From a virus (lineage: Duplodnaviria; Heunggongvirae; Uroviricota; Caudoviricetes), in the IMG/VR virus record IMGVR_UViG_2675903278_000002: a DNA stretch of 64,000 nucleotides; one strand, written 5' to 3'. A program made the translations under genes and the position numbers. Below the pieces are notes generated by a model. That model was not told the DNA's origin. It saw nothing but the letters and a program-made list of their open reading frames with translations, and did no database searches. Positions 1-36,280 of this stretch are shown piece by piece. Every line of letters starts with the position of its first letter. The stretch's first letter is position 1.

Positions 1-2256
1 CGCGTCGTAATGTATGGCGTAGAAGGCATTCGTGGTGTAAGCGCATCCGCTGTAGCAATGGGAGCTGCGGCCAGCATTTTTGATGGGATTACCACCAGCC
101 AGTTGCATGAGGCTTTGGTTAAATCTGCCGCTGATTTGATCTCACCAGAAGCACCAAATTACTCACAGGTGGCTGCCCGCCTGAACATTTTTAAAATCCG
201 CAAAGATGCCTTCGGTCGTTACGACTATCCGAACTTCTACCAACACATTGTCAAGAACGTTAACAAGGGCGTTTATGACAAGGATTTGCTGACACATTAT
301 TCGTTTGAAGAGATCGAAGAACTCGGCAATTACATTAAGCCGAAACGTGACGATCTTTTTGGCTATGCAGCTACGGTGCAGTTGCAAAGCAAATACCTCG
401 TTCAAAACCGTGTTACTGGTGAGATTCATGAGGGGCCGCAACATATCTATATGCTGGTAGGCATGTGTCTGTTCCAGAATTGGGAAGACGACTGCGCTGG
501 CAAAACACGTATGGAGATGGTCAAAGGTTTCTATGACGTTACAAGTACGTTCAAACTGTCTCTGCCCACACCAATCATGGCCGGCGTCCGTACTCCAACC
601 CGTCAGTTCTCCAGTTGTGTGCTGATTGAGTCTGGCGATAGTCTGAAAGGGATTAGTGCAGCTTCAGCCGCAATTATCGACTACGTTTCACGTCGTGCTG
701 GAATTGGTATTGGTTTTGGCCGTATCCGTGCGCTGGGCAGCGAGATCCGCAATGGTGAAGCCACCCATACCGGAGTTATTCCATTCCTGAAGCATTTCCA
801 GACGGCTGTTAAATCTTGTTCGCAAGGTGGTGTTCGTGGTGGCGCAGCAACAGCGTTTTACCCGATCTGGCATCTTGAAGTTGAAAGTCTGCTGGTGGTG
901 AAAAATAACCGTGGTATTGATGAAAACCGCGTTCGCCATCTTGATTACGGCGTCATGAGTAACCGTCTAATGTACCGTCGACTCGTCAGAAGCGAGAACA
1001 TCACTCTGTTCAGCCCGCATGATGTGCCTGATATGTACGAAGCCTTCTTCACAGACCAGGAGCTGTTTGAAAAGCTGTACCATAAATACGAAGCCGATGA
1101 TTCAATTCGCAAGAAGTCAGTACCTGCCATTGAGCTGTTCTCATCTCTGATGCAGGAACGAGCGTCCACGGGCCGAATTTATATTGCGAACGTCGATCAT
1201 ATTAACGAGCATGGCGCTTTCATTCCTGCTCTTGCACCTGTTCGCCAGTCAAACCTGTGCATGGAGATCACTCTACCCACTCGTCCACTGGCATTTACCG
1301 ACGACCCGAACGGTGAGATCGCGCTATGCACTTTATCCGCTTTTAACCTCGGAGCCATCCGTTCACTGGAGTCTCTTAAAGAGGTGGCGTTCTATGCCGT
1401 TGCTGCACTGGATTCGTTACTGGATTATCAAGACTATCCGATGGAGGCAGCCGAAGTGCCTGCCAAAGCTCGTCGTAGCTTGGGAATTGGTGTAACCAAC
1501 TTTGCTTATTACCTGGCAAAGAATGGCGTTCGTTATTCTGATACCGCTGGCAATAAACTGGTGCATGAAACGTTCGAAGCTATCCAGTATTACCTTCTTG
1601 ATGCCAGCTGCCGACTTGCTGAAGCAAAAGGTGAGTGTGACTGGTTTGAGCAGACCAAGTACGCAATTGGTCAGTTGCCGATCGACCATTACCGTTCTTC
1701 ATTAGACGAAAGTGGCGAAACCAACTTTGAGTTAAAGATGCCGTGGGAAGAACTGCGTGAACGTATTGCAAAATACGGCCTTCGCAACTCCACACTGACG
1801 GCACAAATGCCATGCGAGACTTCCAGCCAGATCACTAATTCCACCAACGGCATCGAACCGCCTCGTGGACCGGTGTCGGTGAAATCTTCTAAGGACGGCA
1901 TCGTTAAGATGGTCGTGCCTGAGTTTGAAAAACTGAAGGAACAGTATGAATACCTGTGGGATATGCCGGACAACCGCGGCTATCTGACAAAGGTGGCGAT
2001 CATCCAGAAGTTCTTTGACCAGGCTATTTCAGCCAATACCAACTATGACCCTTCTCGCTTTGAAGGCGATAAAGTCCCAATGATGACGCTACTGTCAGAT
2101 TTGCTTCTCGCCTACAAGATGGGAGTTAAAACGCTTTACTACCACAACACCAGAGATGGGGCAGGAAAGCGTGATGACGACGAACCGCAGAATCCACTGA
2201 CGCAAGCTGTAGCCGTCGAGCCAGAAGATGAGTGCGACGGAGCCTGCAAAATCTGA
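1..2256 (+). CDS. nrdA: ribonucleoside-diphosphate reductase alpha subunit (class Ia NrdA), 5' end outside window
   Basis: Frame open from base 1; NrdA-like along its length (QSKYLVQNRVTGEI, PTRQFSSCVLIE, RVRHLDYGV, C-terminal DECDGACKI tail); N-terminal ATP-cone region missing upstream. Confidence 0.95.
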   Translation, partial: RVVMYGVEGIRGVSASAVAMGAAASIFDGITTSQLHEALVKSAADLISPEAPNYSQVAARLNIFKIRKDAFGRYDYPNFYQHIVKNVNKGVYDKDLLTHYSFEEIEELGNYIKPKRDDLFGYAATVQLQSKYLVQNRVTGEIHEGPQHIYMLVGMCLFQNWEDDCAGKTRMEMVKGFYDVTSTFKLSLPTPIMAGVRTPTRQFSSCVLIESGDSLKGISAASAAIIDYVSRRAGIGIGFGRIRALGSEIRNGEATHTGVIPFLKHFQTAVKSCSQGGVRGGAATAFYPIWHLEVESLLVVKNNRGIDENRVRHLDYGVMSNRLMYRRLVRSENITLFSPHDVPDMYEAFFTDQELFEKLYHKYEADDSIRKKSVPAIELFSSLMQERASTGRIYIANVDHINEHGAFIPALAPVRQSNLCMEITLPTRPLAFTDDPNGEIALCTLSAFNLGAIRSLESLKEVAFYAVAALDSLLDYQDYPMEAAEVPAKARRSLGIGVTNFAYYLAKNGVRYSDTAGNKLVHETFEAIQYYLLDASCRLAEAKGECDWFEQTKYAIGQLPIDHYRSSLDESGETNFELKMPWEELRERIAKYGLRNSTLTAQMPCETSSQITNSTNGIEPPRGPVSVKSSKDGIVKMVVPEFEKLKEQYEYLWDMPDNRGYLTKVAIIQKFFDQAISANTNYDPSRFEGDKVPMMTLLSDLLLAYKMGVKTLYYHNTRDGAGKRDDDEPQNPLTQAVAVEPEDECDGACKI

Positions 2257-2362
2257 CATATGGTGGGGGATATCCCCACCTTCTCTTTGATTTGTAAGCC
2301 TTGTTTAAACACATAAGATAACAACTTGTTTAAACGCACCAAAAAAGAAAAAGGAAAAACAC

Positions 2363-3505
2363 ATGTCATATTCAACGTTCCGTTTGGGTGCTAATGATGC
2401 AACCAAAGAGCCTATGTTCCTCGGACAATCTGTCAACGTGGCACGTTACGATCAGCAAAAATACCGTGATTTTGAAAAGTTGATTGAACGTCAATTGTCT
2501 TTCTTCTGGCGGCCGGAAGAAGTTGATATTTCGAGCGATCGTATCGACTTCAACACGAAGCTGCGGGACCACGAACGTCACATTTTTCTGAGCAATCTCC
2601 GTTATCAAACGTTACTCGATTCAGTTCAGGGACGTAGTCCAAATGCAACGCTGCTGCCGCTTATCTCTATTCCTGAACTGGAAACGTGGGTTGAAACGTG
2701 GTCTTTCTCTGAGACTATCCATAGCCGCAGCTACACCCACATTATTCGTGGCATGGTGGACGATCCGAGCATTGTTTTTGACGGTATTGTTACGGATGAA
2801 GAAATCATCAACCGAGCGATCAGTATCTCTGCTGAATATGACAGGCTTTATGGGATGACCTGCGAGCGCCAGTCGTTAGGTGAGAAGGAATTTGAGCGTC
2901 TGTACGTAAATGAATATGGCTGGGAGCCATACCCTTTGCACCGTCAGCTTTTCCGCACGTTGGTGTCCATTAATGCGCTTGAGGCGATCCGTTTCTATGT
3001 AAGTTTTGCATGTACGTTTGCCTTTGGCGAACGGAAGTTGCTTGAGGGTAACACCAAAATTATGCGCTTTATTGCCCGTGATGAAGCTCTGCATTGCGAA
3101 GGAACTGAACGCATGATCCGCTTCATGCGTACCGGTCGCGAAGGTTTATTGTGGAAAGAGATTGCTGCTGATGAAGAAAACGTCATTTACGACACCATGA
3201 AATCAGTCGCCGAACAAGAAATGAACTGGGCAGACTATCTCTTCAAAGACGGTTCGATGATTGGTTTAAACGCGGATATTCTCAAAACCTATGTAAAATA
3301 CCGCACCAATCTGGCTATGAATCGTCTTGGCCTGAAGGCTTTATTTCCAGAGGTTACCACCGATCCGCTGGTCTGGATGAACAAGTGGTTGTTAACCGAC
3401 ACACTGCAAATTGCACCACAAGAGGCAGAGCAAAGCACATATCTGGTAGGTCAGATCGATTCTACCGTGGATAAGGCTTCTCTAAGCCAGTTTGCAGACC
3501 TGTAA
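2363..3505 (+). CDS. nrdB: ribonucleoside-diphosphate reductase beta subunit (NrdB)
   Basis: 380 aa; [48 protein letters not shown] as in class Ia NrdB; directly downstream of nrdA; RBS-like GGAAAAACACATG. Confidence 0.96.
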
Positions 3506-3582
3506 ACCGATACAAAGCATTATGTGGCCTGGCAACGCTGGGCCACAATGGATCACAAGAATTAAGAAGGAACAAAACTAGC

Positions 3583-4452
3583 ATGAACTTTACCAAACTG
3601 ACTGACCACCTGAAACTTGCCACCGATCGACTCATTGGATTTAAGCCAGAACCATATGAGTTGCATGAAGGCCATGGTGTAGCCACTGAAAGTATTTACA
3701 AGATGGTCGATCAGTTTCATGAACTCTTCCAGCATCCGAGACGCGTTATGCCGACACCAGAGCTGCTTCGTCTCCGTGCAAGCCTGATTCATGAAGAAGC
3801 TGTAGTGGAAGGTATTCCAGCCGCAATGAATGGGGATATTGAGCAACTGCTGGATGCAATGGCCGACTTTTTATACGTTGGTGTTGGTACGATGGTCGCC
3901 ATCAAAGGTGGTATTTCTACCGGCATGACCTATTACACGCAGGAACAGAGCATTGATCGCTTTATGCAGACAATTTTTGTGCCCGGTAACACTGTTTTCG
4001 ATGATATGGCAATGCCATTTCAGGAAGCTCGTGAGGCGTCATGTATGCTCGAAGAGCTGGCAGATAAACTTGAGAACAAGACTGTTAAGGATTCTGAGCT
4101 GATTCAGGAACTGCGCCGTGTCATGAACAAAATCTATGTGGCGTGCATGATGACCTATCGACTGGCTGATTTCCTCGGTATCAATGTAGTCGAGCTGGTT
4201 GGCGAAATTCATCGGTCTAACATGACAAAATTATGGCCTGCTGATGTTGAGGAACGTCGCCAGGCTGTGGCCAACTGCAAATACGACTCTTCAGATCTGG
4301 GATTCCGCCATGCTGATGGCACCGATAAGATGATCGGTTTTCGAATTTCCGATGGAAAGATTCTGAAGTCTCCAACCTATAGTGATGTCGATTTATCCTC
4401 CTTTGTTGAGCAAGCTAAAGCCTCAGCAATGTACGGAATGATCAAAAAATAA
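3583..4452 (+). CDS. hypothetical protein, possible MazG-like nucleotide pyrophosphohydrolase
   Basis: 289 aa ORF with RBS (AAGGAAC) in the nucleotide-metabolism module; acidic helical segments with E-x-x-E/D spacing; function is a guess. Confidence 0.7.
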   Translation: MNFTKLTDHLKLATDRLIGFKPEPYELHEGHGVATESIYKMVDQFHELFQHPRRVMPTPELLRLRASLIHEEAVVEGIPAAMNGDIEQLLDAMADFLYVGVGTMVAIKGGISTGMTYYTQEQSIDRFMQTIFVPGNTVFDDMAMPFQEAREASCMLEELADKLENKTVKDSELIQELRRVMNKIYVACMMTYRLADFLGINVVELVGEIHRSNMTKLWPADVEERRQAVANCKYDSSDLGFRHADGTDKMIGFRISDGKILKSPTYSDVDLSSFVEQAKASAMYGMIKK

Positions 4453-4620
4453 TTGTAGGTAGTTATCTATCTGTGTATATTGCGTTGGCGCGTTAAATTT
4501 CTGAAACAACTATTCGTTTTTGGTGGCCTATGGCCACCATTTTTTTATCTGTCTGGTCTTGTTCTCTCAATAAATGTAAACTCACGCAATGAATAAGTGG
4601 TTACTTATCTTTGTGAGGTT

Positions 4621-5727
4621 TTTGTGTCACTCCTTTTGAATCGTGAGCATACGAACGGTCAGGTAACAAACGCATCGTATGCAAAAGTTATTGAGACGGT
4701 GCTTAAAAGCGGCGTGCAGGCTGATGATCGCACAGGCACTGGTACTTTAAGCACCTGCTACGTTCCCTCTTACTACATGCTTACTGGTGGGACTGTGCCG
4801 CTTATTTCTGGAAAGGCGGTAAATCTTAAGCCACTGCTTGTCGAACTTGAGTGGTATCTGAAAGGCACGGGCAACATCCAATTTCTCAAGGATAACGGCG
4901 TTAAGATTTGGGATGCATGGGCCGATGAGAATGGCGATTTGGGGCCGGTTTACGGTAAGCAGTGGCGTCGATGGGAAGATACCCGCATCGTGAGCCATAG
5001 TGAATATCTGAGCAAGATCGCTACTTTCCGTGAACGCGGGTACAAAGTCGAGGGATACCTGGGTATCAGTGAAGATCGCGTAGTGCTGTCCCGTGAAATC
5101 GATCAGCTACAGCGTATTGTCGATACACTGCGCACGAACCCTACCGATCGTCGCATCATGCTTAACGCATGGAACGTAGGCGAGCTTGAGGATATGAAAC
5201 TGCCACCTTGCCACTTTGTCTTCTCTTTGTGGAGTCGTGAGCTGGATTTTGAAACCCGTTTAACGATGGCAACTGACATTGGTCTTCAACACAGTCGCCT
5301 CGGTTATGAGTCTATCTACACCAAGATGCTATACGATCTGGAGATGGACGGCAGTGTTACTGAAACTGAACTGGATGAACTTGGAATCCCCAAACGCATC
5401 CTCAACTCCTGCCTCGTACAGCGTAGCGTAGACACTTTTGTTGGTATGCCATTCAATATTGCTGGCTATGGCATTCTCACTCATTTTCTCGCGAAGATTA
5501 CGGGTCACATGGCCGGTGCATTTGTGCATTTTGGCTTTGACGTGCATTTATACAATAACCACATGGAAAGTGTGTGTGAGCTAATGAAACGACAGGCTCC
5601 AGAGCATTCAGATCCGGTCGTTATTTTCCCTCATGAATGGTCTGAGCTGGATGATTTCAAATGGGACGATATTCTGATTCTTGGCTATGACCCTCTACCG
5701 TGGATCAAGGTTCCAGTGGCGGTGTGA
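4621..5727 (+). CDS. thyA: thymidylate synthase family protein (ThyA-like) with ~100-aa insertion
   Basis: DRTGTGTLS, GDLGPVYGKQWRRWE, catalytic LPPCHF, insertion before it; adjacent DHFR favours a true thymidylate synthase; track ORF starts at GTG 4597, GTG 4621 with GAGG upstream preferred. Confidence 0.85.
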   Translation, partial: FVSLLLNREHTNGQVTNASYAKVIETVLKSGVQADDRTGTGTLSTCYVPSYYMLTGGTVPLISGKAVNLKPLLVELEWYLKGTGNIQFLKDNGVKIWDAWADENGDLGPVYGKQWRRWEDTRIVSHSEYLSKIATFRERGYKVEGYLGISEDRVVLSREIDQLQRIVDTLRTNPTDRRIMLNAWNVGELEDMKLPPCHFVFSLWSRELDFETRLTMATDIGLQHSRLGYESIYTKMLYDLEMDGSVTETELDELGIPKRILNSCLVQRSVDTFVGMPFNIAGYGILTHFLAKITGHMAGAFVHFGFDVHLYNNHMESVCELMKRQAPEHSDPVVIFPHEWSELDDFKWDDILILGYDPLPWIKVPVAV

Positions 5728-9458: not shown

Positions 9459-10052
9459 ATGATTGCAGCCGAAAAAATCAAACAGCGAAAGCGCGACAAC
9501 TCTCTTCGTGACCTCTGGAGAACACCTGACTGGCTGTTTTCTGCCATTCAACGTTATCTTGGAGTGACATTTGATGTTGACGTTGCCTGCAACAAGGACA
9601 ATGCAAAGCTGCCTAATTTCATAGGCGTTGAGCGTGATGCTTTGAAATCTGAATGGGGACAGCCAGGTACAATTGCCTTCCTCAATCCACCCTACTCCAA
9701 AATCTCCCCCTGGATTGATGCGGCTATACGTGAGCAGGCTCGCGGAGTTACAACAGTGATGCTAATTCCTCAATCCCTAGATACAAAGTGGTATGAGCGT
9801 GCAACAGAGTGTGCGAATGAGACGATTATTCTGTCTGGTGGCCGCGTAGCGTTTGTCGAGCCTGACGTCAATCTGGGTCAGGTAGAAGTAAACATCAACC
9901 CAGGTGGCAGTATGCTCGTTGTTTTTCGAGGATTCTGTCAGGACGCTGGGCACTCTATAAGCAAGATCCCTTTGGACGTCATGAAAAGTCTGGGAGGGTA
10001 TGATCCTGCGAATGTGATCAGGAAAAAAAGACCATCAAAGAAGGCTGCTTAG
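9459..10052 (+). CDS. dam: DNA N6-adenine methyltransferase (phage Dam-like)
   Basis: 197 aa; catalytic NPPYS (AFLNPPYSKISPW); size and motif order fit small phage Dam enzymes. Confidence 0.8.
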   Translation: MIAAEKIKQRKRDNSLRDLWRTPDWLFSAIQRYLGVTFDVDVACNKDNAKLPNFIGVERDALKSEWGQPGTIAFLNPPYSKISPWIDAAIREQARGVTTVMLIPQSLDTKWYERATECANETIILSGGRVAFVEPDVNLGQVEVNINPGGSMLVVFRGFCQDAGHSISKIPLDVMKSLGGYDPANVIRKKRPSKKAA

Positions 10053-13300: not shown

Positions 13301-13870
13301 ATGTGCAAGAAATGCAAAGCGATAGCTGATGAACAAAACGCCTTATTCGAAGAAATGGATGCTAATGAACTGGTCAAAATGTTAGCCATTCTTCGAGGAA
13401 TAGAAGACGTTTCCATATTTGAGAGAGTGGTTACAGCACTTAATTTTGAGTCCACCTTTGAAGAGCCAACTCAGGTTGTAGCTTTAGCACATCATTTCGG
13501 TGTTCATTATCTTGCTGAAAAAGAGCGCGCTGATAAGTTGCAGGCGACTTTGGATATGGTGAGCGAGACTCAACGAACTGATGACACTAACAAGAGTGAG
13601 GCGATTATTGCCAGCAAAGATCGTGAAATTGCTGGGCTTAAATCCTCTCTAACGATGTTGATGTCTGCGTTCAATCTTATGTCTTCTCAGGCGGGTTATA
13701 AAATGCCATCACTAAACAGCGATGATCCGATGGCCGTTCGTCAGCTTTTGGGAGCAATGGCCGACCAACTCGACGACACAAAGAGTCGGCTTGAAGACAT
13801 GATGCGTGAGTTAAGCCATCGACATAACCTCGCAACACAGCCACACAAAGCCTTTCAAAGCTCTAATTGA
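13301..13870 (+). CDS. hypothetical protein
   Basis: 189 aa ORF with conserved upstream motif and RBS; helical, no enzymatic motif. Confidence 0.65.
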   Translation: MCKKCKAIADEQNALFEEMDANELVKMLAILRGIEDVSIFERVVTALNFESTFEEPTQVVALAHHFGVHYLAEKERADKLQATLDMVSETQRTDDTNKSEAIIASKDREIAGLKSSLTMLMSAFNLMSSQAGYKMPSLNSDDPMAVRQLLGAMADQLDDTKSRLEDMMRELSHRHNLATQPHKAFQSSN

Positions 13871-13925: not shown

Positions 13926-14207
13926 ATGGCATACGGTACAGGGATTTACAACAATAAAGGAATTAACGTTACTGGCTTCCTTACTCCTATTTTTTTTCTT
14001 GATCGATTTACTGCGTCATCAGGCTCTAAGACGTACTCCAATCCGCCACCGGGTAAATCGCTACATGCCGTGTGGTCATTGATGCCTCTTAACAACGACA
14101 ACTACATTAATTTACCTGTTCCAACAGTTACTATTAATGGAAATACGGTTAGTTGGTCAAATTTATATACGGGGCTTGGTTCTTACATATACACATACTG
14201 GGGATAA
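13926..14207 (+). CDS. hypothetical protein
   Basis: 93 aa ORF; tightly followed by next ORF. Confidence 0.45.
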   Translation: MAYGTGIYNNKGINVTGFLTPIFFLDRFTASSGSKTYSNPPPGKSLHAVWSLMPLNNDNYINLPVPTVTINGNTVSWSNLYTGLGSYIYTYWG

Positions 14208-14209
14208 TT

Positions 14210-14824
14210 ATGTTCGGGATGTCAATTACTCAATCAGATGGAAGTTTGTGGATGAGTCCAGAATTTACTCCGCAAAATCTGATTAATAAAGGGACAATGT
14301 CTACATCTAAAGGTTCTGTTTTTCAAACATCAATCCCATCAAACAAATCATGCTTTTTCTTCATAAAAAGCAGTAATAAGGCGAACATGATGTTTATTCA
14401 TGAGCATAGTAACGGATACAATGCTCTCAGATTGCATCAGGTAAATGGTAGCCCCGGAACAATAACAGTTTATGCTTTTTCTGATATGGTGTTACCACAT
14501 TCTGGCTATGGCATTGCCATGTATAACAGCGCAGGCGCAATGGTGTATCACGGTGAGATGATGCCCCTTGATGCGAAACTTATCACTATTTCTGACCCTC
14601 AATTTACAATAGATATGGGGTATCCATGTGCGGTAATGCCTGCTATGGTTGGGGTATATAACTATAGACGAACCGATTACGACAGACCTGTCTATGTAAC
14701 AATGACAGGTGCAACTGGAAACCAAGTATATAACGGTCAATGGTATTCCGGTAATGTCACATGGGATATTAAGAAGATTTATACAAACAAAATTCTGGTG
14801 ATAAATACCTCCAAGTATGATTAG
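14210..14824 (+). CDS. hypothetical protein
   Basis: ATG 2 nt after previous stop, in frame with track ORF 14153..14824; ~204 aa. Confidence 0.5.
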   Translation: MFGMSITQSDGSLWMSPEFTPQNLINKGTMSTSKGSVFQTSIPSNKSCFFFIKSSNKANMMFIHEHSNGYNALRLHQVNGSPGTITVYAFSDMVLPHSGYGIAMYNSAGAMVYHGEMMPLDAKLITISDPQFTIDMGYPCAVMPAMVGVYNYRRTDYDRPVYVTMTGATGNQVYNGQWYSGNVTWDIKKIYTNKILVINTSKYD

Positions 14825-14927
14825 CCAATGCCTTTATTTGAAGGATTGCCTGTTTATTTCTATTTAGTACCTTTTCATTTTTGAAATAATTGCACCATTA
14901 AACAAATCACTTCTTAATGGTGCAATT

Positions 14928-16613
14928 ATGAATACAGCCCTTTCCATCATCGACGATGCCAACTCAAACACTGCTATCGACTATCGGCAGGAAATGAACG
15001 TCATCCACGAAATTGTGGCCGAGTGCGAGAAAGAGATCGCCTTCATGTATCAGGTACACGACTTCGTTTATGGCGACGAACGCCACAACATGATTAATCG
15101 CCTGCTGAGACTAAACCATCGACCAGATGAAGATCGCTCGCGTTTAAATCGAGGTTGGTTGGATAAAGTCGATCTGGAATGGGTGAAACAGAATATTTGG
15201 GCCGAGTACTGGAGGAAGGTCACGGACATGACTAACGTTTTGCTGATCATGCCAGCTTCCCGTCGAGATGAGTGGCGCGAGCAGTTTATAGAGGGCAAAC
15301 AGGAAGTCATCAAAACTGACAGAACCGGCTACCAGATGAAGGTTAAAGAGTTCGTTGGTGTACCGGAGTTCAAAGCAGAAACGGTCATACCCACGATGCT
15401 TAATTTGCTGAATGACAGGCACAAATATCTCTCTGAGCGCGTGTATGGCTTGTTTAAGGCGCTGAGTCCTGCGCACAAGACAAATAAGACAAACGGTTTC
15501 AGCGAACGTCTGATAATCGCTGACTGCATTTCTGATTTCTGGCGGGACAGCGTTAGTGTGAACTATCGCAAAGAGGACTATATCGACGATCTGCGTGTCT
15601 TGCTTCATTTCTTCGCGCACAAAGAATTTATTACCATCAACCGCACTGCTGAGGTGCTATCAGCTGCGTATCGGGCAAACGACTGCCAGACCGGTGACTG
15701 GATGAACGTCGATGGAAATCTAATGCGCGTGAAGATGTTCAAGAACGGCAACGTTCACTTTGAAATACATCCTGACGTGGCCTGGAAGTTGAATGAGGTG
15801 CTGGCTTACAGTATGCCTGCTGCAATCCCCGCGCCATGTCGCACCGCGCCAAAAACACGGGCACCAAAGCAGTTCGGGTTAATCCAGAAGACGATCTCCG
15901 TGCCGGTTCGCACTGCGCTTCGTGACGGGCGATTAAGCAAAGACAAAGGCGTATGGTACTTCTCTGATTCAGCTCTCCAGAAGTCGCAGGTGGAAGAGCT
16001 TGAGCGCACACTGAGCTTCATTGGCGGCGTGCAGGAGAAAAAGCACTGGCAGTTCCCGTATGAGATCGGCCATACGCTAAATACGATTGTGGCTACCGGA
16101 TTAATACCGGATACAAAATCACACCAGTTCTACCCTACCCCACGCTTGATTGCTGAGTACGTTGCCAGAGCCACTGAATTGAAGTCTGGTGAGAAGCTGC
16201 TGGAGCCTCAAGCCGGACGTGGGGATCTTCTGGCCTATATCAACGCCGATCTGGAAGATGTTACCTGCATAGAAATCGCACCTCTCTTCGCTGATATCCT
16301 GCGCGGAAAAGGGTATACGAACACGATTTGCTGCGACTTCATAAAGTGGTCTGAGGACAACGTAGGTTATCAGTTCGACAAAATCGTTATGAACCCGCCG
16401 TACTCGCTTGGTCGTCATAGAGAGCACACGCTGGCTGCGCTGGGGCATCTGAAAGTCGGCGGGCGTCTTGTAGCAGTATTGCCGGGCACTGCGCCAATAC
16501 TGGACTGGATGACGATGGATAATTACGTTTATGCCAGAGGGAAGTCGTTTACCAACGAGTTTGAAGACACAGGGATCACAGTCAGCGTATACGTTTTCAA
16601 ACGCGTTAAATGA
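14928..16613 (+). CDS. putative DNA methyltransferase with large N-terminal domain of unknown function
   Basis: 561 aa; C-terminal third has SAM-binding-like LEPQAGRGDL and catalytic IVMNPPYS; first ~330 aa unrecognised. Confidence 0.75.
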   Translation: MNTALSIIDDANSNTAIDYRQEMNVIHEIVAECEKEIAFMYQVHDFVYGDERHNMINRLLRLNHRPDEDRSRLNRGWLDKVDLEWVKQNIWAEYWRKVTDMTNVLLIMPASRRDEWREQFIEGKQEVIKTDRTGYQMKVKEFVGVPEFKAETVIPTMLNLLNDRHKYLSERVYGLFKALSPAHKTNKTNGFSERLIIADCISDFWRDSVSVNYRKEDYIDDLRVLLHFFAHKEFITINRTAEVLSAAYRANDCQTGDWMNVDGNLMRVKMFKNGNVHFEIHPDVAWKLNEVLAYSMPAAIPAPCRTAPKTRAPKQFGLIQKTISVPVRTALRDGRLSKDKGVWYFSDSALQKSQVEELERTLSFIGGVQEKKHWQFPYEIGHTLNTIVATGLIPDTKSHQFYPTPRLIAEYVARATELKSGEKLLEPQAGRGDLLAYINADLEDVTCIEIAPLFADILRGKGYTNTICCDFIKWSEDNVGYQFDKIVMNPPYSLGRHREHTLAALGHLKVGGRLVAVLPGTAPILDWMTMDNYVYARGKSFTNEFEDTGITVSVYVFKRVK

Positions 16614-21302: not shown

Positions 21303-22403
21303 TCACACTGCGCGGAATGCGATTTCGCCAGGTATTACTTCACCTTGCCAATACATTTGGGCAGCAACGCGATCTGCGAGGTCACGATAAATAGCCGTAA
21401 ATTCGCTATCTGGACGACTAATAACGGTTGGTGTTCCGTTATCCAGATCTTCACGAAGAGAGATATGAAGTGGCATTTGGCCTAACAACTGCGTGTTGTA
21501 TTTCTCGGCCAGTTTCTGTGCGCCACCGGTGCCAAAAATTGGCTCGTGATGACCGCAGTTACTGCAAATATGCACACTCATGTTTTCGACGATACCCAGT
21601 ACCGGCACTTCGACTTTTTCGAACATCACAATGCCTTTCTTCGCATCGATCAGCGCGATGTCTTGCGGCGTAGTTACCACAACCGCACCAGTTACAGGAA
21701 TGTTCTGCGCCAGCGTCAACTGAATATCACCAGTGCCCGGCGGCATATCGAGAACGAGATAGTCCAGATCAGGCCATAGAGTTTCCTGCAACATCTGCAT
21801 CAGCGCCTTGCTGGCCATCGGTCCACGCCACACCATTGCATTGTCGTCGGTGACCAGATAACCAATAGAGTTGGTTGCCAGGCCATGAGACATGATAGGT
21901 GCCATGTGAGTACCGTCCGGTGAGGTTGGACGTTGGTTTTCCGCGCCCAGCATGGTTGGAATTGATGGACCATAGATATCGGCATCCAAAATACCAACTT
22001 TCGCACCTTCAGCAGCCAACGCCAGTGCCAGATTTACCGCCGTGGAGGATTTACCTACGCCGCCCTTGCCTGAGCTGACGGCGATAATGTTCTTAACGCC
22101 ATTAATGCCTGGTTGGTTTTTGACGCGCTTAAGCGTGGCAATGTTGTACGACAGCTTCCAGTCAATAGCCTTTGCGCCAGTGATACGGAGCAGATCACCA
22201 CTACATTGCTCTTTCAGGTCTTCAAAAGGCTTATTCCACACGAAAGGCATGATTAGTTCGACATGCAGTGTGTCATCCATCAACGCAACATGGTGTAACG
22301 CTTTAAGCGTAGTCAGGTTGTGTTTCAGGGTTGGGTGCTGAAAATTAGCCAGCGTACCGGCTACCATTGCTCTCAGGGCATCCGGCGATTTGGACTCGCT
22401 CAT
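21303..22403 (-). CDS. apbC: iron-sulfur cluster carrier ATPase ApbC/Mrp (host-type)
   Basis: 366 aa; deviant Walker A AVSSGKGGVGKSST, CSNCGHH motif; from recall, matches enterobacterial ApbC/Mrp closely along its length (not alignment-checked, unlike metG); divergent from metG as in E. coli. Confidence 0.95.
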   Translation of the reverse strand: MSESKSPDALRAMVAGTLANFQHPTLKHNLTTLKALHHVALMDDTLHVELIMPFVWNKPFEDLKEQCSGDLLRITGAKAIDWKLSYNIATLKRVKNQPGINGVKNIIAVSSGKGGVGKSSTAVNLALALAAEGAKVGILDADIYGPSIPTMLGAENQRPTSPDGTHMAPIMSHGLATNSIGYLVTDDNAMVWRGPMASKALMQMLQETLWPDLDYLVLDMPPGTGDIQLTLAQNIPVTGAVVVTTPQDIALIDAKKGIVMFEKVEVPVLGIVENMSVHICSNCGHHEPIFGTGGAQKLAEKYNTQLLGQMPLHISLREDLDNGTPTVISRPDSEFTAIYRDLADRVAAQMYWQGEVIPGEIAFRAV

Positions 22404-22560
22404 CCCGTCTCCTTTATTTTAATTTGCGCAATTGTCGCCTTGTAGTGTACTCCAGCTACGACATTTAATCATTTATGAGAAATGCTGTTATCACATGGCA
22501 GACATAAGGCCATTTTGTTACTATCAAGCCCCTTTTCACTACAAAGAAGTAATGCCTACT

Positions 22561-24594
22561 ATGACCCAAGTCGCGAAGAAAATTCTGGTGACGTGCGCGC
22601 TGCCGTACGCTAACGGCTCAATCCACCTCGGCCATATGCTGGAGCACATCCAGGCTGATGTCTGGGTTCGTTACCAGCGAATGCGCGGCCACGAGGTTAA
22701 TTTCATCTGTGCCGACGATGCCCACGGTACGCCGATCATGCTGAAAGCACAGCAGCTTGGTATCACACCGGAGCAGATGATTGGCGAAATGAGTCAGGAA
22801 CACCAGACTGATTTCGCAGGCTTTAACATCAGCTATGACAACTATCACTCGACGCACAGCGAAGAGAACCGTCAGTTGTCTGAGCTTATCTATACTCGCC
22901 TGAAAGAGAACGGTTTTATTAAAAACCGCACTATCTCTCAGTTGTACGACCCGGAAAAAGGCATGTTCCTGCCGGATCGTTTTGTAAAAGGCACCTGCCC
23001 GAAATGTAAAGCGCCAGATCAATACGGCGATAACTGTGAAGTCTGCGGCGCAACATATAGCCCGACTGAATTGATCGAGCCGAAATCGGTGGTTTCTGGC
23101 GCTACCCCGGTAATGCGTGATTCCGAACACTTCTTCTTTGATCTGCCTTCTTTCAGCGAAATGTTGCAGGCATGGACCCGCAGCGGCGCGTTGCAGGAGC
23201 AGGTGGCGAACAAAATGCAGGAATGGTTTGAATCCGGCCTGCAACAGTGGGATATCTCCCGAGATGCGCCTTACTTCGGTTTTGAAATTCCGAACGCGCC
23301 GGGCAAATATTTCTACGTCTGGCTGGACGCGCCGATTGGCTACATGGGTTCCTTCAAGAATCTGTGCGACAAGCGCGGCGATACCACCAGCTTCGATGAA
23401 TACTGGAAGAAAGACTCCACCGCCGAGCTGTACCACTTCATCGGTAAAGATATTGTTTACTTCCACAGCCTGTTCTGGCCTGCCATGCTGGAAGGCAGCA
23501 ACTTCCGCAAGCCGACCAACCTGTTTGTTCACGGCTATGTGACGGTGAACGGCGCGAAGATGTCCAAGTCTCGCGGCACCTTTATTAAAGCCAGCACCTG
23601 GCTGAATCATTTTGACGCCGACAGCCTGCGTTACTACTACACTGCGAAACTCTCTTCGCGCATTGATGATATCGATCTCAACCTGGAGGATTTCGTTCAG
23701 CGCGTGAATGCCGATATCGTGAACAAAGTGGTTAACCTGGCCTCCCGTAATGCAGGCTTTATCAACAAGCGTTTTGACGGCGTGCTGGCAAGCGAACTGG
23801 CTGACCCGCAACTGTACAAAACCTTTACTGATGCCGCTGAAGTGATTGGCGAAGCATGGGAAAGCCGCGAATTTGGTAAAGCTATCCGTGAAATCATGGC
23901 ATTGGCTGACCTGGCTAACCGCTATGTCGATGAACAGGCTCCGTGGGTGGTGGCGAAGCAGGAAGGACGCGATGCCGATCTGCAGGCGATTTGCTCTATG
24001 GGCATTAACCTGTTCCGCGTGCTGATGACGTACCTGAAGCCGGTACTGCCGAAACTGACTGAACGTGCAGAAGCATTCCTGAATACAGAACTGACCTGGG
24101 ATGGTATCCAGCAACCGCTGCTGGGCCATAAAGTAAATCCGTTCAAGGCACTGTATAACCGCATCGATATGAAGCAGGTTGAAGCACTGGTGGAAGCATC
24201 CAAAGAAGAAGTGAAAGCCACAGCCGCACCGGTAACTGGCCCACTGGCTGACGACCCGATTCAGGAAACTATCACCTTTGACGACTTCGCCAAAGTTGAC
24301 CTGCGCGTGGCGCTGATTGAAAACGCAGAGTTTGTAGAAGGTTCTGACAAACTGCTTCGCCTGACGCTGGATCTCGGTGGTGAAAAGCGTAATGTCTTCT
24401 CAGGCATCCGTTCCGCTTATCCAGATCCACAGGCACTGATTGGTCGTCACACCATTATGGTGGCTAACCTGGCACCACGTAAAATGCGCTTCGGTATCTC
24501 TGAAGGCATGGTGATGGCTGCTGGCCCCGGCGGGAAAGATATCTTCCTGTTAAGCCCGGATGCTGGTGCTAAACCTGGCCACCAGGTTAAGTAA
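22561..24594 (+). CDS. metG: methionyl-tRNA synthetase (host-type)
   Basis: Starts [31 protein letters not shown]..., KMSKS present, ends ...GAKPGHQVK; essentially the E. coli MetG sequence; track ORF 22432 begins upstream in frame, ATG 22561 is the conserved start. Confidence 0.96.
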
Positions 24595-34720: not shown

Positions 34721-36280
34721 CTAATCTCGTTTCAGAACTCCAAAATCGAATGCTCCATCAATAGGCAATACACCTTCTGCAAAGCCAGGTGTGGTGTCGA
34801 TGATGTGTTTTCGCTCATAAGAGTGAGACAACAGGTATTTGTTGCTAATGTCAATGAAATCAGTGATAAAACACACGTTTGCCTGATTTTTTTTGGCTCG
34901 TAAGCCACGACCGACACGCTGCCTCATTTCAACTTCTGCTTTTCCACCACCAGCCAGAATGACCGCACCAACGCTTGGCACATCAACACCGACATCCAGA
35001 ATAGTCGAGCCTATTAAAACATCTATTTCGCCAGACGCTAAACTGTTCAGCTTTGCTTGCCTTGTCGCCTGGTTCGATTCCCCATAGATGAAGTCAACTT
35101 TAAGACCTGACTCCTTCATCATCTCCATCAGGATTTGCCCGTGGCGTTTAAGACGAACCAGAGTCATGCAATTGAGAGAATGTTGCTTATAGAGCAATGC
35201 TTCGCGCACAATGGCCTCGTTACGTCCCAAATTATACACGATCCCCAACTGATAAGCCTTTTGGTAGGCTGTGCTCATACCTACTCTAAAATTAAGGTGT
35301 TTGTTGGCAAGTTCCGCCTTGATTCTGACCTCGTCTGGCTTGTAAGCAACTTTATGATAAAGGAAGTACGGTTTTGCCAGAATGCCTCGATCAATCAGGT
35401 ACTTTTCTGTGACTTTAATTTCAATTCGACCGGCCACAGCCATCAGACGCATGTTGGCTTCTGTAGAATCCTTCATGAACGGCGTGGCCGTAAGCGCCAG
35501 ACGATAGTCTGCGTTCACACATAATCTGGCAATGTCATAGAAATTAGAGCCTGAAGACTCATGCGCTTCTTCCAGAATAAGCAGAGACACACTTGAAAGG
35601 AAGCGTTTCACCAACTCCCGACGTTTGAGGTGGTAGCTTTTCTTATCTGGTGTTGCATCGCGTGGTGGTTCTTCGAGGAAACTTGCAAGAGTTTGAACTG
35701 TAGCGACGTTGATATGTCGTGATACCTGGAACTCACCCGAGCCAATGACTCCAACCTTTTGGTCTTTTAACCACGGTTCGCCATTTTCGGCGCGGTAGTC
35801 GATGGATCTCTGGAAGTTTTCGGCCATTTGAAACATCAGAACAGAGCGGGTTGTTAAAAATAATGTCATTCGACCGATACGTGCAGCTGCTTTGCAGGCA
35901 ACGTTAGATTTCCCGCCACCAGTAGCGATCTGCGCAATCATCATTCCCTCTCGAACCAGTGTTTCCACAGTCTGATCCTGATACGCATAATCAGGATTGT
36001 ATGGGAATGGGTTAACCGCCGGATTTGGTTTACCAAGCGCCGGGGCTTTGTCTTTGCGGATATGAACACATTTGATGCCCGCCTTGTTCAAGTTCGCCGC
36101 TACAGGCTTGGCAAAGCCAGCAGGGAACGAGTTTTTACTCCAGTTGAACATCGTGCTTGTGCCCTTCCAGTCGCCAGTCTCGACTTCGTAGCTCAACATT
36201 TGCTGCACCAGTTGCTTTACCTTGTCATCTGCGCCAGAAATAAGCGCATTTACTGCGTTAGATACAATCCGAACAGTCAT
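34721..36280 (-). CDS. SF2 DNA/RNA helicase (DEAD/DEAH-like)
   Basis: 519 aa; Walker A IATGGGKS, motif II LILEEAHE, C-terminal domain with QRVGRGLR arginine finger. Confidence 0.88.
   Translation of the reverse strand: MTVRIVSNAVNALISGADDKVKQLVQQMLSYEVETGDWKGTSTMFNWSKNSFPAGFAKPVAANLNKAGIKCVHIRKDKAPALGKPNPAVNPFPYNPDYAYQDQTVETLVREGMMIAQIATGGGKSNVACKAAARIGRMTLFLTTRSVLMFQMAENFQRSIDYRAENGEPWLKDQKVGVIGSGEFQVSRHINVATVQTLASFLEEPPRDATPDKKSYHLKRRELVKRFLSSVSLLILEEAHESSGSNFYDIARLCVNADYRLALTATPFMKDSTEANMRLMAVAGRIEIKVTEKYLIDRGILAKPYFLYHKVAYKPDEVRIKAELANKHLNFRVGMSTAYQKAYQLGIVYNLGRNEAIVREALLYKQHSLNCMTLVRLKRHGQILMEMMKESGLKVDFIYGESNQATRQAKLNSLASGEIDVLIGSTILDVGVDVPSVGAVILAGGGKAEVEMRQRVGRGLRAKKNQANVCFITDFIDISNKYLLSHSYERKHIIDTTPGFAEGVLPIDGAFDFGVLKRD

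Follow-up and report, generated by a model that had tools for sequence, protein, structure and literature searches.

What does a 561-residue protein that joins a methyltransferase motif to a long N-terminal extension do for the mobile element encoding it, and on what substrate does it act? The gene lies at positions 14928-16613 on the plus strand of the 64,000-nucleotide stretch of DNA analysed as a whole (the window), and all features of the gene given below are on the same strand. It is a complete open reading frame with an ATG start and 561 codons followed by a stop, exactly as the earlier note on this DNA had called it. The protein contains the sequence IVMNPPYS, with the NPPY tetrad at residues 489-492 (16392-16403). 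When every stop-to-stop frame of 120 residues or more in the window was scanned for [DNS]PP[YFWH], a single further site appeared outside this gene, at nucleotide 9684 in a 197-residue ORF (9459-10052) identified as a Dam enzyme by Pfam (PF05869, E=2.5e-38). The description of the gene as a second NPPY methyltransferase was thus right, the other motif-bearing long ORF being the Dam-type one.

The 4 kb surrounding the gene match Escherichia phages CMS-2020a and Cyrano at 98-99% identity, and the gene itself is 88.6% identical to its counterpart in Salmonella phage SSU5. From this near-identity and the SSU5 ortholog, the window is assigned to an SSU5/pHCM2-like phage-plasmid, of which it forms a part. 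The orthologs are labeled as a "DUF4942 domain-containing protein" in Cyrano and as a "DNA methyltransferase" in SSU5 (SSU5_095), and an identical protein is listed at NCBI as [quoted passage not shown], found on 659 contigs. Of 5,426 complete E. coli genomes, 251 (~5%) carry the gene, and 247 of the 256 places where it occurs in E. coli are SSU5-like plasmids of about 106-112 kb. PHROG 6263 ("DNA methyltransferase") matches from end to end (E=7.1e-300, residues 1-561 against profile positions 1-548 of 548) and Pfam DUF4942 (PF13708) matches residues 140-295 with 74 bits against a gathering cut-off of 25. The N-terminal domain is therefore not unrecognized, as had been supposed, and the gene is an already catalogued database entity of a known family, not a novel one.

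The fusion, too, is widespread. A profile of the N-terminal 395 residues, searched against 1.84 billion cluster representatives, matched 1,517 proteins at E<=0.001 and 417 at E<=1e-30; among the 150 representatives listed, almost all are 510-580 residues long and carry the module at the N terminus, at residues ~10-390. DUF4942 was found in 75 of 75 sampled diverse members, 44 of which also reach the Pfam MTS model. By these profile matches, a DUF4942 module joined to a methyltransferase is the standard architecture of a large mobile-element family and not a peculiarity of this phage, so the N-terminal domain is a known fusion partner, the outcome that the earlier note had itself named as speaking against its proposal. 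In the literature searched, no functional data were found on DUF4942, on the SSU5 or pHCM2 methyltransferases, or on the methylomes of phage-plasmid strains, nor any experimental work on a family member, m6A formation on DNA included.

The C-terminal part of the protein (residues 396-561; 16113-16610) forms a minimal seven-stranded class I SAM-dependent amino-methyltransferase domain, which is modeled with confidence (pLDDT about 90). Three motifs follow one another along the chain: the motif X-like sequence QFYPTP (residues 400-405; 16125-16142), motif I, which is the SAM-binding loop LLEPQAGRG (residues 424-432; 16197-16223), and motif IV, the catalytic NPPY tetrad. Conservation was assessed in a set of 25 homologs of 34-92% identity and in 75 broader representatives of ~30% identity. 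Across these homologs, Q400 of motif X is invariant with Y402, P403, and T404 at least 90% conserved; E426, P427, and G430 of the SAM loop are invariant with L425, S428, A429, and G432 at least 90% conserved; and in motif IV, P490 (at least 90% conserved) stands between the invariant N489 and P491, with either Y or F following at position 492. Elsewhere in the domain, H500 is invariant and E449, D470, F471, and F545 are at least 90% conserved. A loss of conservation among the catalytic residues had been named in the earlier note as the mark of an inactive relic; the near-complete retention of NPP(Y/F), the SAM loop, and motif X gives the opposite result. That Pfam methyltransferase models stay below threshold on this sequence could be taken as a sign of decay, but Q400, E426, P427, G430, N489, and P491 are invariant at ~30% identity and the model of the domain is confident. 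Since its catalytic and SAM-binding residues are invariant, the domain is apparently active, and the idea of a relic is scarcely credible.

A linear X-I-IV motif order, an NPP(Y/F) tetrad, and a TP-capped helix define the EcoKI/TaqI-like gamma-class adenine methyltransferases of mobile elements (PMC5512222). The order and the tetrad are as described above, and the cap is seen in the AF2 model, where T404-P405 is followed by a helix at residues 406-416. The catalytic domain is read as a minimal EcoKI/TaqI-like gamma-type N6-adenine methyltransferase, with adenine-N6 the probable target atom. It does not reach the cut-off of Pfam N6_Mtase (PF02384), scoring 13.7 against 20.4 bits, and just two of the 75 homologs match that model at E<=0.001. 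Because only ~70 residues follow NPPY, and these complete the Rossmann fold, the C-terminal target-recognition domain of the M.TaqI type is absent.

A long N-terminal extension is real, as the earlier note had it; its length is ~395 residues and not 330, because the catalytic domain starts at the motif X-like QFYPTP. Similarity to a unit that occurs in larger phage proteins as well (PHROG 9133) sets in at residue 328. A separate AF2 model of residues 1-395 is confident (pLDDT 82.6, pTM 0.72) and divides the module into four parts. The N-terminal helical region (residues 1-122; 14928-15293) has helices at residues 20-48, 52-62, 83-102, and 110-121, with residues 1-16 disordered in the model, and PHROG 16000 covers residues 1-157; within the family this region is among the variable ones. 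It is followed by the DUF4942 core, an α/β domain (residues 123-296; 15294-15815), and by a basic, proline-rich linker (residues 297-334; 15816-15929) with a pI of 11.6, a net charge of +6, and a lowered model pLDDT of 65-82. A small α/β domain (residues 335-395; 15930-16112), delimited from the AF2 secondary structure, directly precedes the methyltransferase core. This last domain is variable apart from an invariant G366, and it travels with the methyltransferase core in PHROG 9133 proteins, which match residues 328-560 (E=3e-50).

The most conserved part of the protein is the DUF4942 core, above the catalytic domain. Over the 75 homologs, mean pairwise identity is 47% with 13 invariant positions for the core (residues 123-296), 43% with seven for the catalytic domain (residues 396-561), 31% with two for the N-terminal helical region (residues 17-122), and 27% with one for the small α/β domain (residues 335-395). 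Among the invariant positions of the core are S180, H183, T185, N186, D221, W258, D262, H277, and N289, the first four of which are on or beside a low-confidence loop (residues 183-186). The N-terminal module as a whole is not basic (pI 6.9), and no DNA-binding fold is recognizable in it. Classical DNA target-recognition domains evolve fast; the conservation of the core departs from this and suggests that the substrate is engaged in a constant way or that the target itself is constant, any variable specificity then lying in the flanking parts. A core conserved above the catalytic domain could also point to a target that is constant and possibly not DNA, or to a second activity.

Since the catalytic domain has no target-recognition domain and no HsdS-like gene is present among the neighbors of the methyltransferase gene, we infer that the N-terminal module would hold and present a nucleic-acid substrate. 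A tentative extension of this idea, given a low probability, is that DUF4942 is a new nucleic-acid-engaging module without a solved structural relative, giving the enzyme a very short, degenerate, or structure-dependent specificity. By analogy with M.EcoGIX or M.EcoGII, the latter a non-specific methyltransferase, such relaxed specificity might be directed, for example, at single-stranded or replicating DNA, and this version is put forward just as tentatively. The unusual conservation of the DUF4942 core over about 1,500 clusters would be in keeping with a single way of engaging the substrate that is shared by the family and independent of sequence.

An independent activity of the N-terminal module would make the protein bifunctional, with the module acting either as a nuclease, as in a Type IIG-like restriction-modification fusion, or as a binder or inhibitor of host defense proteins. 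The invariant H183, N186, D221, D262, H277, and N289 do resemble an active or binding site, and some depositors have labeled homologs "RE endonuclease" or "restriction alleviation protein". A weak Type IIG match from PADLOC falls over the methyltransferase part only, and the N-terminal PD-(D/E)xK nuclease and C-terminal recognition domain of the Type IIG/IIL fusions (Eco57I, MmeI) are not found here. A bifunctional protein of this kind is considered improbable.

Evidence on the substrate comes from the affinities of the catalytic core and from the places where its homologs reside. PHROGs annotated as "DNA methyltransferase" and as giant polyvalent proteins match residues 397-520 with E values of 1e-15 to 1e-19, and PADLOC returns mad2 (E 5e-15) and Type II methyltransferases (E 2.8e-10). 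The core is found at 37% identity inside a 3,782-residue PLxRFG protein of a Pseudomonas Hollowayvirus and a 3,066-residue Vibrio phage protein, and polyvalent proteins of this sort have been argued to act on incoming DNA (PMC5512222). These affinities, as judged by sequence comparison, favor the DNA enzymes of mobile elements.

Full-length homologs of 30% identity are carried by IncHI2 plasmids, near a Dam gene and repHI2, and a Cereibacter MOBP conjugative plasmid has one between DUF932 and parAB/mobC/relaxase. The Cereibacter match was considered as a case of permuted order, with the methyltransferase first and DUF4942 second; this was ruled out, the order being the usual one. In lambdoid prophages of Variovorax and of an Enterobacterales strain, the homologs lie just downstream of the repressor/Cro switch or of replication genes and adjoin other orphan methyltransferases of N6_N4 and C5 types. 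Pseudomonas phage vB_Pae_U7 has its homolog in the nin region, and further homologs are found in virulent and temperate phages of Aeromonas, Vibrio, Marinomonas, and Pseudomonas, where the genes are always called methylases. Two prophage loci (L007, 6948-14320, and L005, 10001-12936) hold clusters of two or three different orphan methyltransferases in the early-right operon, the partners of the DUF4942-methyltransferase being of the N6_N4_Mtase and C5 DNA_methylase (699 residues) types. Clusters of this kind look like a stacked arsenal of protective methylation.

Among plasmid proteins, the nearest relative of the core by itself is a 187-residue methyltransferase of IncF leading regions (33% identity), which has antirestriction and DUF1380 genes close by. 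In IncF plasmid NZ_CP145670.1 (L004, 7506-9477) it is annotated as a "class I SAM-dependent methyltransferase" and lies directly after a 453-residue DUF3560 gene and before ssb/psiB; this enzyme is also without a recognition domain, and DUF3560 is unrelated to DUF4942. The possibility that the DUF3560 neighbor represents a split-off N-terminal module was rejected on an hhalign probability of 0.4%, and YfjB/HerB was likewise dismissed as a related leading-region protein, being ParB-like. No report on the target of the 187-residue enzyme was found in the literature searched. For leading-region orphan methyltransferases in general, protection of entering DNA from restriction has been proposed (PMC11541004), and it has been demonstrated for M.EcoGIX (PMC7736820).

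Structure comparison of the catalytic domain places METTL5, an rRNA m6A enzyme, as the best match, with M.BseCI (17.7), M.TaqI (17.4), HsdM (17.0), and CamA (16.6) as the matches among DNA enzymes. NPPY-type sites also serve m2G-RNA and protein-glutamine methylation, and the fold alone cannot decide between DNA and other substrates. The enzyme might then modify RNA (adenine or guanine in rRNA or tRNA) or a glutamine residue in a protein, reprogramming or protecting the host translation machinery, with DUF4942 recognizing that constant target. The likeness to METTL5, KsgA, and Erm is at the level of the fold only, however, and sequence similarity is negligible: NCBIfam equivalogs of rRNA methyltransferases score 12-17 bits against cut-offs of 171-350 (E>=0.002), the KsgA model giving 15.7 bits against 171 and the Erm models 11.7-13.2 against 212-350. 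Neither a TRMT112-like partner nor an rRNA-binding C-domain is found here, and the genomic context is one of mobile-element DNA functions. Similarity to the DNA methyltransferases of mobile elements is stronger by many orders of magnitude, EcoKI/TaqI-like DNA enzymes typically have the TP-capped helix, the homologs cluster with other DNA methyltransferases and replication genes, and the core also forms part of polyvalent virion proteins that are believed to work on injected DNA. Methylation of RNA or protein is accordingly regarded as unlikely.

Within the window, the methyltransferase gene ends a co-directional DNA-metabolism arm that encodes the large and small subunits of ribonucleotide reductase (RNR), a thymidylate synthase, an epsilon-like exonuclease, Dam, RNase H, and a TerB/TciA-like protein, and it is followed downstream by Ead/Ea22- and Eaa-like genes. 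The thymidylate synthase homolog (4597-5727, plus strand), which belongs to the RNR/ThyA nucleotide-metabolism module (10-5727), is unusually long, at 376 residues against a 266-position Pfam model that is matched in two stretches. A 519-residue SF2 helicase with ResIII, DEAD, and Helicase_C domains is encoded on the minus strand at 34721-36280, with no positional connection to the methyltransferase locus. A full-length class I methionyl-tRNA synthetase is encoded at 22432-24594 on the plus strand (720 residues from a TTG start; Pfam tRNA-synt_1g, E=5e-166, with anticodon-binding and tRNA_bind domains), adjoined by a ParA/MinD-like ATPase gene on the minus strand (21303-22403). Between positions 13800 and 17500 there are no sigma-70 promoter-like sites on either strand, where shuffled sequences lead one to expect 6.6 +/- 2.6, and no terminator on the coding strand, as would fit a long co-directional operon transcribed by read-through. 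The two small ORFs directly upstream of the gene (14006-14782) have ~78% DNA identity to genes of JenP1, JenP2, and BRET, unrelated ~60-kb coliphages, where the counterparts are called membrane associated or outer membrane protein genes; they are missing in SSU5, which has an Ant anti-repressor at that site. Positions 14006-14782 are a mosaic cassette insertion.

A perfect 16-bp inverted repeat with a 12-nucleotide spacer (14886-14929, plus strand; arms 14886-14901 and 14914-14929) runs up to and into the start codon of the gene; its 3' arm spans GGTG together with the codon's first two bases (AU of AUG). Folded as RNA, the repeat has a predicted energy of -20.6 kcal/mol (z=-6.3), and GGTG and AU would be occluded. 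The repeat is common to the window and Cyrano, survives in SSU5 and GArcari only as CACCA/TGGTG, 5-6 bp long, and is absent from more distant orthologs. The hairpin was considered as a trait conserved among the orthologs, which was ruled out as it is not kept past close relatives; it is therefore lineage-specific and not a family trait, and possibly a translational control element or an operator.

A hairpin of this kind suggests controlled expression, and by analogy with Dam and CcrM the enzyme could be a DNA adenine methyltransferase that mainly serves epigenetic self-regulation, for instance of replication timing, the lysis-lysogeny decision, or packaging. An orphan gene kept in a plasmid-prophage that resides in its host for long periods would suit such a role, as would the presence of a Dam-type enzyme in the same element and the strong conservation of the N-terminal module, which suggests a single conserved target motif. 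The occurrence in virulent as well as temperate phages, the leading-region-like plasmid sites, and the multi-methyltransferase clusters nevertheless fit a protective arsenal better, and no conserved repeated motif or regulatory site linked to the gene was found. Self-regulation as the main role would thus seem doubtful.

Taken together, the reading we prefer, with a probability of roughly 0.55, is that the protein is an active orphan gamma-type N6-adenine DNA methyltransferase whose N-terminal module binds the substrate and which protects or marks the element's own DNA. Counted in its favor are the conservation of the motifs, the EcoKI/TaqI-like features, the sequence affinities, the contexts in the window and of the homologs, the IncF relative, and the obligatory fusion; counted against it are METTL5 as best structural match, the service of NPPY-type sites in RNA and protein methylation, the sub-threshold N6_Mtase score, the conservation of the DUF4942 core, and an N-terminal module with a pI of 6.9 and no recognizable DNA-binding fold. 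In the preferred mechanism, a solitary SAM-dependent enzyme would consist of a minimal 166-residue catalytic domain always fused to the ~395-residue DUF4942 module, which would hold the nucleic acid and present it for catalysis. The phage-plasmid's own DNA would be methylated at entry or during replication, and this methylation would add to the protection that the Dam-type enzyme gives against host restriction, aiding establishment in new hosts.

As a gene, this is an ordinary catalogued orphan methyltransferase of SSU5-like phage-plasmids. What interest remains lies in its family, which is large and restricted to mobile elements, where it sits in early or establishment regions; in its members, a DUF4942 module of high conservation accompanies a minimal catalytic domain. 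SSU5-like phage-plasmids are vehicles of resistance genes in Enterobacterales, and the target of the enzyme would reveal how they pass restriction barriers. If relaxed specificity were true, the family would represent a broad-spectrum anti-restriction device common to phage-plasmids, prophages, and conjugative plasmids, and could provide a useful addition to the few promiscuous adenine methyltransferases.

Among known systems, the Pfam DUF4942/PHROG 6263 family, with SSU5_095 and "YdiA" of pHCM2, supplies full-length orthologs of 86-100% identity that occupy the same place in SSU5-like phage-plasmids with the same domain order; no difference is seen and the family is the same. M.TaqI, M.BseCI, CamA, and HsdM differ in that the present protein has neither a C-terminal recognition domain nor an HsdS and has the 395-residue N-terminal module instead. 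DarB-type and PLxRFG polyvalent proteins of 3,000-3,800 residues share a related core and, like the DUF4942-methyltransferases, are found in invasion-phase settings of mobile elements. In contrast to these, the present protein is a stand-alone chain of 561 residues, ends 70 residues after NPPY without the C-terminal SF2 (SWI2/SNF2) helicase of the DarB-type methylase-helicase dyad (which has LPD36 at its N-terminal side), and is not encoded at a virion-protein gene position. Phage P1 gave no tblastn match at E<=1e-5; the Escherichia phages with a match comprise four records, all of SSU5-like elements. M.EcoGIX was weighed as a homolog and set aside, since it and M.BceJIII are beta-class enzymes with DPPY and no DUF4942 (PMC7736820), whereas the present protein has the gamma-type motif order and NPPY; the relation to M.EcoGIX is one of functional analogy alone. 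M.EcoGIX and M.BceJIII, single-strand-specific m6A enzymes of plasmid leading regions, are also orphan adenine methyltransferases of mobile elements with the same proposed role, the protection of incoming DNA, and relatives of the present core are encoded in the same IncF leading regions.
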